A program made the position numbers and the translations under genes. A stretch of DNA of 64,000 nt from Coriobacteriia bacterium (GTDB taxonomy: Bacteria; Actinomycetota; Coriobacteriia; Anaerosomatales; SLCP01). Positions within the stretch are counted from its first letter, which is position 1; every line of letters starts with the position of its first letter. This document shows positions 27,275-27,294 of the stretch, piece after piece. The notes under the pieces are model-generated. The model made no database searches, was not told the origin of the DNA, and was given only the letters and a program-made list of their open reading frames with translations. The stretch covers positions 958 through 64,957 of the forward strand of contig JAUVXE010000002.1 of assembly GCA_030603745.1 (NCBI GenBank), given 5' to 3'.

Positions 27275-27294
27275 GCGTTCAAACGTCCGTTTGA
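27275..27294 (+). promoter_or_regulatory. candidate operator: GCGTTCAAACGTCCGTTTGA, identical to the site upstream of the ArsR-family gene
   Basis: Perfect dyad TCAAACG-N2-CGTTTGA at 27279..27294. It ends 32 nt upstream of the hgcA ATG. TATCCT (27314..27319) lies 6 nt from the ATG and no SD is present, giving leaderless-type geometry. Confidence 0.7.

Follow-up and report, generated by a model that had tools for sequence, protein, structure and literature searches.

An inverted repeat shared by hgcAB and an unlinked arsR gene of a Coriobacteriia bacterium as a candidate ArsR operator

The control of hgcAB expression and the real role of this gene pair are open questions in mercury biogeochemistry, and the sole handle so far is an adjacent arsR gene, tested in one Desulfovibrionaceae strain. 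In P. mercurii ND132, an ArsR regulator is co-transcribed with hgcAB and responds to arsenic, and arsR-like genes are located upstream of hgcAB in other methylators as well (Goni-Urriza 2020; Gionfriddo 2023). The hgcAB-linked ArsR2 of ND132 (DND132_1054) also responded to S-adenosylhomocysteine (SAH). An earlier sequence-only reading of the DNA analysed here also noted that an ArsR-like regulator encoded beside hgcAB has been reported for P. mercurii. More generally, the DNA targets of ArsR/SmtB proteins are reported to be inverted repeats that overlap elements of the promoter. Control of hgcAB by ArsR is already known, as are trans-acting ArsR regulons for other targets; what this locus adds is that the proposed regulator is unlinked, together with a candidate promoter and operator for hgcAB, points undescribed in the reports on ArsR and hgcAB, which contain no operator or promoter (Goni-Urriza 2020; Gionfriddo 2023). 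A literature search for hgcA in combination with promoter, ArsR and palindrome returned nothing relevant.

The locus that we describe lies in a 64-kb stretch of DNA from a Coriobacteriia bacterium (hereafter the window, i.e., the whole stretch analysed). It resembles the ND132 system in the proposed action of an ArsR/SmtB-family repressor on hgcAB and in the link to arsenic, and relatives of the window also carry arsR directly upstream of hgcAB. In the window itself, by contrast, no arsR directly precedes hgcAB: the adjacent gene appears to have been deleted, and the regulator is encoded on the other strand, 8.7 kb away from hgcA, from where it is proposed to act in trans via a duplicated operator. 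The cysteines differ too, the four-Cys site of ArsR2 consisting, by its published description, of C47, C49, C86 and C88, compared with C36, C38, C75 and a C-terminal CC in the window protein. With the canonical ArsR proteins (those of E. coli R773 and the E. coli chromosome; SmtB/CzrA, 12-2-12) the window regulator shares the winged-HTH dimer and the helix-3 ELCVC box, an inverted-repeat operator with a 2-bp centre that overlaps the core promoter, and self-repression, which is predicted for the window protein; its orthologues head arsR-acr3-arsM-arsP operons. Unlike R773 ArsR, it is missing the third cysteine (C37) and has a conserved C-terminal CC/CxC motif instead, and there are no ars genes next to it, the visible candidate target being hgcAB. 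Dispersed promoters governed via shared operators or cross-regulated paralogous operons are known from TtSmtB of Thermus thermophilus HB27 and from the ArsR1/ArsR2 bifan of Pseudomonas putida; their targets, however, are arsenic or metal resistance genes rather than hgcAB, whereas the dispersal in the window seems traceable to a deleted resident regulator gene.

The mercury methylation pair of the window is encoded on the plus strand by hgcA (27326..28330; 334 aa) and hgcB (28341..28628; a 95-aa ferredoxin). HgcA scores 396 bits against NCBIfam model NF040863 (equivalog cut-off 275) and carries the cap-helix motif NVWCAAGK, and HgcB scores 126.8 bits against NF040864 (cut-off 99), contains Fer4 domains and ends in CC, which identifies the two genes as an HgcA/HgcB pair. 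The regulator gene, arsR (18160..18516, minus strand), encodes a 118-aa protein assigned to ArsR/SmtB by its HTH_5 domain (PF01022, 64.8 bits, cut-off 22) and by a metal-binding box with Cys ligands; it also matches NF033788 (90.9 bits, cut-off 55), and its relatives in the PDB include HlyU, SmtB, CadC and CzrA. The box, ELCVCE, spans residues 34-39 in helix 3, and C36, C38 and C75 are invariant in 13 members of the clade, across which the C-terminal CC (C103, C104) is conserved as CC or CxC.

The two loci share a 20-nt sequence, GCGTTCAAACGTCCGTTTGA, which is found exactly twice in the window, at 27275-27294 on the plus strand and at 18529-18548 on the minus strand, the same positions that the sequence-only reading gave. 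No third copy exists in the whole 64 kb even at up to three mismatches, which bears out the earlier statement that there are only two, and none of 100 dinucleotide shuffles contained any match to the 20-mer, in keeping with the view that a chance match is very unlikely. The core is a perfect 7-2-7 dyad of 16 bp, TCAAACG-NN-CGTTTGA, as had been recognised before; it occupies 27279-27294 in the candidate operator copy at hgcA (TCAAACGTCCGTTTGA), which is supported by sequence and by alignment with relatives, and 18529-18544 in the candidate copy at arsR, supported by sequence and by the matching layout of locus L179 (see below). When the pattern was loosened to TCAAAC-N4-GTTTGA with up to two mismatches, the same two sites were the only ones in the 64 kb (0.21 expected), and two such sites were reached in 0 of 100 shuffles; given that the G+C content of the host genome is ~70%, an A+T-rich dyad would be rarer still. 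The match between both regions runs on in the 5′ direction (CGGTC(G)GCGTTCAAACGTCCGTTTGA, 25/26 with one indel), and a second shared island, TCGCCnCATGGA, surrounds both start codons (11/12 positions, equalled by 46 of 2000 shuffles). Each region has a TAnnnT -10 element 6 nt before an ATGGA start. The description of the two intergenic regions as otherwise unrelated was therefore mistaken, for they have the extended flank, the -10 element and the start in common. The 20-mer ends 12 nt before the arsR ATG, as previously stated, and 31 nt, rather than 32, before that of hgcA.

Both copies are positioned where a bound protein could interfere with transcription. The predicted hgcA promoter (27291..27319, plus strand) comprises a -35 element TTGACT (27291-27296), a 17-nt spacer and a -10 element TATCCT (27314-27319). 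It is the only sigma-70-like match to a promoter between 17700 and 28800 (~11 kb), and it overlaps the dyad, the -35 element coinciding in part with the right arm. Six nucleotides separate the -10 element from the hgcA ATG. A stop codon in frame at 27299-27301 leaves no room for an earlier start, and the sequence before the ATG has no Shine-Dalgarno motif, so that the hgcA mRNA is predicted to be leaderless. At arsR, the predicted core promoter (18517..18531, minus strand) has no recognisable -35 element and would consist of an extended -10, TGA-TACAAT (TGATACAAT), with TACAAT at 18523-18528, followed by CGCCGC and the leaderless ATG at 18516. The last three bases of the dyad supply its TGn, and the TGA within GTTTGA is an in-frame stop, so that arsR has no earlier start. 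At the sequence level, arsR thus has a candidate inverted-repeat operator at its own promoter. The arrangement of a TANNNT -10 placed 6-7 nt before ATG, as expected of leaderless units, is present at hgcA (TATCCT-N6-ATG) and at arsR (TACAAT-N6-ATG), and the same geometry is common to eight orthologous promoters, which suggests that transcription of both genes starts leaderless.

The gene directly upstream of the arsR-side operator encodes a metallophosphoesterase (18568..19386, minus strand). It ends 51 nt before arsR, with the operator copy lying 20 nt past its stop codon, and serves as a synteny anchor: a metallophosphoesterase gene also precedes the operator and arsR in L010, L014 and L179. 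The geometry of the arsR promoter recurs in L179, L010, L012, L014 and L016. In L179, which harbours the closest relative of the window ArsR (P0002), the metallophosphoesterase gene is followed by GTTCAAACATCCGTTTGA-TATAAT-N6-ATG, a dyad identical in position and architecture to that at the window arsR.

The association of the dyad with arsR extends well beyond the window. Close ArsR homologues from Coriobacteriia MAGs (58-73% local identity) were traced to their contigs (loci L002-L011), and TCAAAC-N4-GTTTGA was found directly upstream of arsR in 10 out of 10 of these loci, in one or two copies, and nowhere else there. The dyad also precedes arsR in L012, L014, L016, L096-L098, L099 and L179; each orthologous arsR recovered from MAGs of Coriobacteriia and other Actinomycetota is directly preceded by it. 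Where two dyads are present, they start 19 nt apart and the downstream one abuts a TAnnnT -10 element, with an ATGGA start 6-7 nt further on. Several of the dyad-preceded arsR genes in L002-L011 head arsR-acr3-arsM-trx-arsP operons, which is more evidence tying hgcAB to regulators of the arsenic type. Outside this clade the motif is rare: among the matches listed, 160 hgcA loci of other taxa (~1.6 Mb) contained one perfect dyad that does not precede arsR, on a contig that both L040 and L116 represent. Approximately 30 of the 80 loci in the HgcA genome scan, from other phyla, carry an ArsR-like gene immediately before hgcA without the TCAAAC-N4-GTTTGA dyad. The metagenome matches listed are mostly distant (≤56% identity), with L099 alone being informative. 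In L010, L012, L014, L016, L096, L098 and L099 the dyad is followed by arsR, hgcA and hgcB, all in the same orientation and contiguous or overlapping. The best explanation for this distribution is that TCAAACG-NN-CGTTTGA is the operator of an actinobacterial ArsR/SmtB clade.

The hgcAB locus of the window appears to be derived from precisely such an arrangement. In L012, L096/L097 and L098, a spermine-synthase-like gene is followed by a minus-strand series (BcrAD, DUF2229, DUF2229 and further genes up to a carbonic anhydrase) and then by the dyads, arsR, hgcA and hgcB. Between 21327 and 28628 the window has the same gene order, minus arsR. It includes a synteny block (21327..26492) that links it to L096 and L098, with the spermine-synthase-like gene on the plus strand and the BcrAD_BadFG, two DUF2229 and DUF1540 genes on the minus strand, and the beta-carbonic anhydrase (CA) gene (26610..27182, minus strand), a further anchor. 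Since the divergent CA gene is shared, the window hgcAB locus can be regarded as orthologous to the loci in which CA faces arsR-hgcAB. The intergenic region between CA and hgcA in the window aligns end to end with that between CA and arsR in L012, at 77% identity (intergenic regions only, as a global MAFFT alignment across the deletion placed the gap poorly). In this alignment the window dyad corresponds to the first of the two L012 dyads ('dyad 1'), the position of 'dyad 2' is degenerate in the window, and ATGGAT matches ATGGAT; a five-way alignment gives the same pairing, with dyad 1 upstream of arsR in L012, L096 and L098. The hgcA -10 element, TATCCT, recurs unchanged at the L012 arsR promoter. 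Based on the shared alignment, -10 element and ATGGAT, the window hgcA promoter is therefore the orthologue of the arsR promoters of its relatives.

The HgcA proteins themselves bear a trace of the same event. Those of the arsR-linked relatives have a Cys-rich N-terminal extension of ~25 aa (MSECCGPS..CC), found in L012 (2662-3738), in P0116 and P0118, and also in L014 (9902-11008) and L016 (hgcA from ~9900). The extension is missing from HgcA of the window and from P0114 and P0115, in which it was lost together with arsR; consistently, the match to NF040863 begins at residue 12 in the window and at residue 37 in L012. The missing N-terminus and the intergenic alignment together point to a deletion of ~400 bp that fused the promoter, operator and first codons of arsR to hgcA. 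The opposite scenario, insertion of arsR in the relatives, was rejected on grounds of parsimony, because the more distant L010, L014, L016 and L099 also carry arsR-hgcA, and the HgcA proteins of L014 and L016 have the Cys-rich extension as well.

The two closest homologues of the window HgcA, P0114 (locus L180) and P0115 (L092), are 336 aa long and 67-68% identical to it, and the adjacent arsR is missing in both; in L092 no arsR was found within 10 kb on either side. Nevertheless, hgcA is preceded by a perfect dyad in L180, on the hgcA-facing side of CA (TCAAACATTCGTTTGA-CT...TATGCT-N7-ATGGAG), and in L092 (TCAAACGTTGGTTTGA-CT...TATGCT-N7-ATGGAG). The window, L180 and L092 agree at all 12 arm positions but differ in the central 4 nt and in the 19-nt spacer that follows, as is commonly seen where a dimeric protein binds. 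Whether related genomes keep the motif in front of hgcA, a question raised along with the original observation, can thus be answered in the affirmative for two further arsR-less lineages.

Other explanations for the repeat fare less well. As a perfect inverted repeat, the arsR copy of which follows a stop codon at short distance, the dyad might form an RNA hairpin that terminates or attenuates transcription, or it might belong to a dispersed repeat family. Its folding energies, however, are no better than those of shuffles (z = 0.35 and -0.96), no T-run follows it, a terminator scan made no call and Rfam gave no match, and a hairpin was rejected on these grounds; a dispersed repeat was rejected because 64 kb contain two copies only, even at relaxed stringency, and we consider the chance of either as negligible. 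The extension of the identity into the non-palindromic flank speaks for copying or gene conversion rather than for convergence alone, and one could see in the repeat a relic without function, left by the rearrangement or duplication through which arsR and hgcAB became separated. Such a relic would have decayed like the former dyad 2, yet the arms persist intact in three arsR-less lineages whose spacers have diverged, so that this too is highly improbable. A caveat of the sequence-only reading was that the hgcA-side dyad might regulate the divergent CA gene, and indeed it lies 97 nt upstream of the CA ATG, and the CA gene occupies this divergent position also in L012, L096, L098 and L180. The dyad nevertheless accompanies arsR or hgcA where CA is missing (L010, L014, L016, L092), and while overlapping the hgcA -35 it is situated ~26 nt outside, i.e., upstream of the -35 of, the candidate CA promoter, a putative divergent promoter in a conserved block (27225..27253, minus strand; -35 TTGCGC at 27248-27253, 17 nt, -10 TAGAGT at 27225-27230). 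For these two reasons control of hgcA is the primary reading and control of CA in its stead is very unlikely; the caveat is largely settled in favour of hgcA as target, with a side effect on CA still conceivable.

A more serious question is which ArsR would bind. In a neighbour-joining tree, the ArsR proteins form two subclades. Type B includes the window protein and those of L179 (P0002), L011, L014, L099, L010, L002 and L006, which are 60-77% identical to it, whereas type A, with L012, L016, L096 and L098, is 47-51% identical. The gene deleted from the hgcAB locus would accordingly be a type A arsR, and the surviving one is of type B. The regulator first attached to the hgcA operator would thus not be the one that now stands 8.7 kb away, and the operator might be bound by another ArsR paralogue encoded outside the window, or by both, in which case the window ArsR would be one of several regulators of hgcAB or would have no part in its control. 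The window covers part of a 232-kb contig, a paralogue or more operator copies may lie elsewhere in the genome, and as many as three ArsR paralogues occur within 10 kb in relatives (L005, L006). We deem this reading unlikely. The dyad is missing in front of the additional paralogues of L005 and L006, whereas the identical 20-mer is present at the window's own arsR promoter. Moreover, the same dyad arms precede the cognate arsR genes in both type A and type B, suggesting that the two types share operator specificity, and a G(T/C)GT-TCAAAC flank ties the arsR-less hgcA operators to the type B operators of the window, L179, L014 and L099. Control in trans by the type B ArsR is proposed on the strength of these shared arms and this flank. 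L092 and P0002, the closest ArsR relative, originate from the same ENA project.

We therefore favour, with a probability of roughly three in four, a reading in which the 118-aa ArsR represses hgcAB in trans, and its own gene, through the shared dyad, and in which a thiophilic metalloid relieves the repression. From the observed promoter homology, synteny, sequence identity and dyad conservation, we infer ArsR binding, repression and the identity of the inducer. A dimer of the protein would bind the dyad at two places. At arsR, where the dyad abuts the extended -10, binding would result in autorepression; at hgcAB, where it overlaps the -35 of TTGACT-17-TATCCT, binding would block RNA polymerase. 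An inducer held by the Cys ligands (CVC in helix 3 and the C-terminal CC) would make the repressor leave the DNA, and both transcription units would be derepressed together. The ancestral state would have been a CA gene facing an operator-arsR-hgcA-hgcB operon with a dedicated type A arsR; the ~400-bp deletion would then have removed this gene and the first ~25 codons of hgcA, which gained the promoter, operator and start codon of arsR, and control of hgcAB would have passed to the paralogous type B ArsR with the same dyad at its own promoter. The inducer is most likely As(III), by analogy with the orthologous regulators that head acr3/arsM/arsP operons. The window holds no ars genes, as judged by tblastn with acr3, arsM, arsP and the Thioredoxin_3-family gene 'trx3' from L002 and L014, so that the case for an arsenic effector is one of orthology. 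The sequence-only reading had envisaged a dimeric ArsR-family repressor at both sites that regulates itself and makes the unlinked hgcAB part of a metal(loid) regulon, and every in silico test agrees with it: the dyad lies upstream of the orthologous arsR genes, arsR-hgcA-hgcB follows it in the nearest relatives, and the window hgcA promoter is orthologous to their arsR promoters. A further step is more tentative, and we would put it at somewhat worse than even odds: after losing its own arsR, hgcAB may have joined an arsenic-type ArsR regulon, its operator being re-tuned or gene-converted from the imperfect type A form TCAAAT...GCTTGA to the perfect GTTCAAAC-N4-GTTTGAC.

The candidate operator and promoter provide a defined target for binding, reporter and regulon-prediction work on hgcAB. 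The natural deletion suggests that loss of the adjacent regulator gene need not disconnect hgcAB from ArsR, and surveys that score arsR adjacency would therefore underestimate ArsR control. If so, many hgcAB loci regarded as regulator-less could be controlled by ArsR via conserved operators, and their regulons would be predictable from sequence. Should the capture by an arsenic-type regulon prove true, hgcAB in these Actinomycetota would be a truly arsenic-responsive pair.

Several additional features of these loci deserve mention. Directly downstream of arsR, and overlapping its stop codon (GTGA), is an ORF for a 65-aa zinc-ribbon protein (17966..18163, minus strand; CxxC...CxxC, with a weak match to the FmdB zinc ribbon), which probably shares a transcript with arsR. 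The zinc-ribbon domain is fused in-frame to ArsR in P0002 of L179, the closest homologue, and the C-terminal CGCATP of the ORF resembles the CxC tail of clade ArsRs, such as CACATP in L010; the 65-aa protein is perhaps a component of the sensor. At a distance of 140 nt downstream of the arsR/zinc-ribbon pair lie genes for an OmpR-type response regulator and a HAMP histidine kinase (15698-17826, minus strand). On the other side, a strong terminator-like hairpin (13 bp, 12 of them G-C pairs; 19478-19509, minus strand) separates a 420-aa gene of unknown function from the metallophosphoesterase gene, and because no such hairpin lies between the latter and arsR, read-through into arsR is possible. 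Near hgcAB, a block of ~60 nt beside the CA start (27184-27240), including the invariant TACTCTACCGAGG, is kept in the window, L180 and L092 and has no Rfam match; in L092 the divergent gene encodes Sua5 rather than CA, and the block may be a captured divergent promoter. The BcrAD_BadFG activator and the two DUF2229 genes (22916-26056 in the window, minus strand), which form a 2-hydroxyacyl-CoA-dehydratase-like set, are syntenic with arsR/hgcAB or arsR/ars loci in the window, L002, L006, L011, L096 and L098. In L010, hgcA is split into two overlapping ORFs (7944-9102) by a frameshift near 8650 of a 360-kb contig, reflecting either a pseudogene or an assembly error. Finally, a Thioredoxin_3-family (ArsE-like) gene follows hgcB in L010 (9449-10710) and L014 (11322-11603), succeeded in L010 by a gene for an ArsP permease, and hgcAB is therefore embedded in operons of the organoarsenical-resistance type in these two loci.
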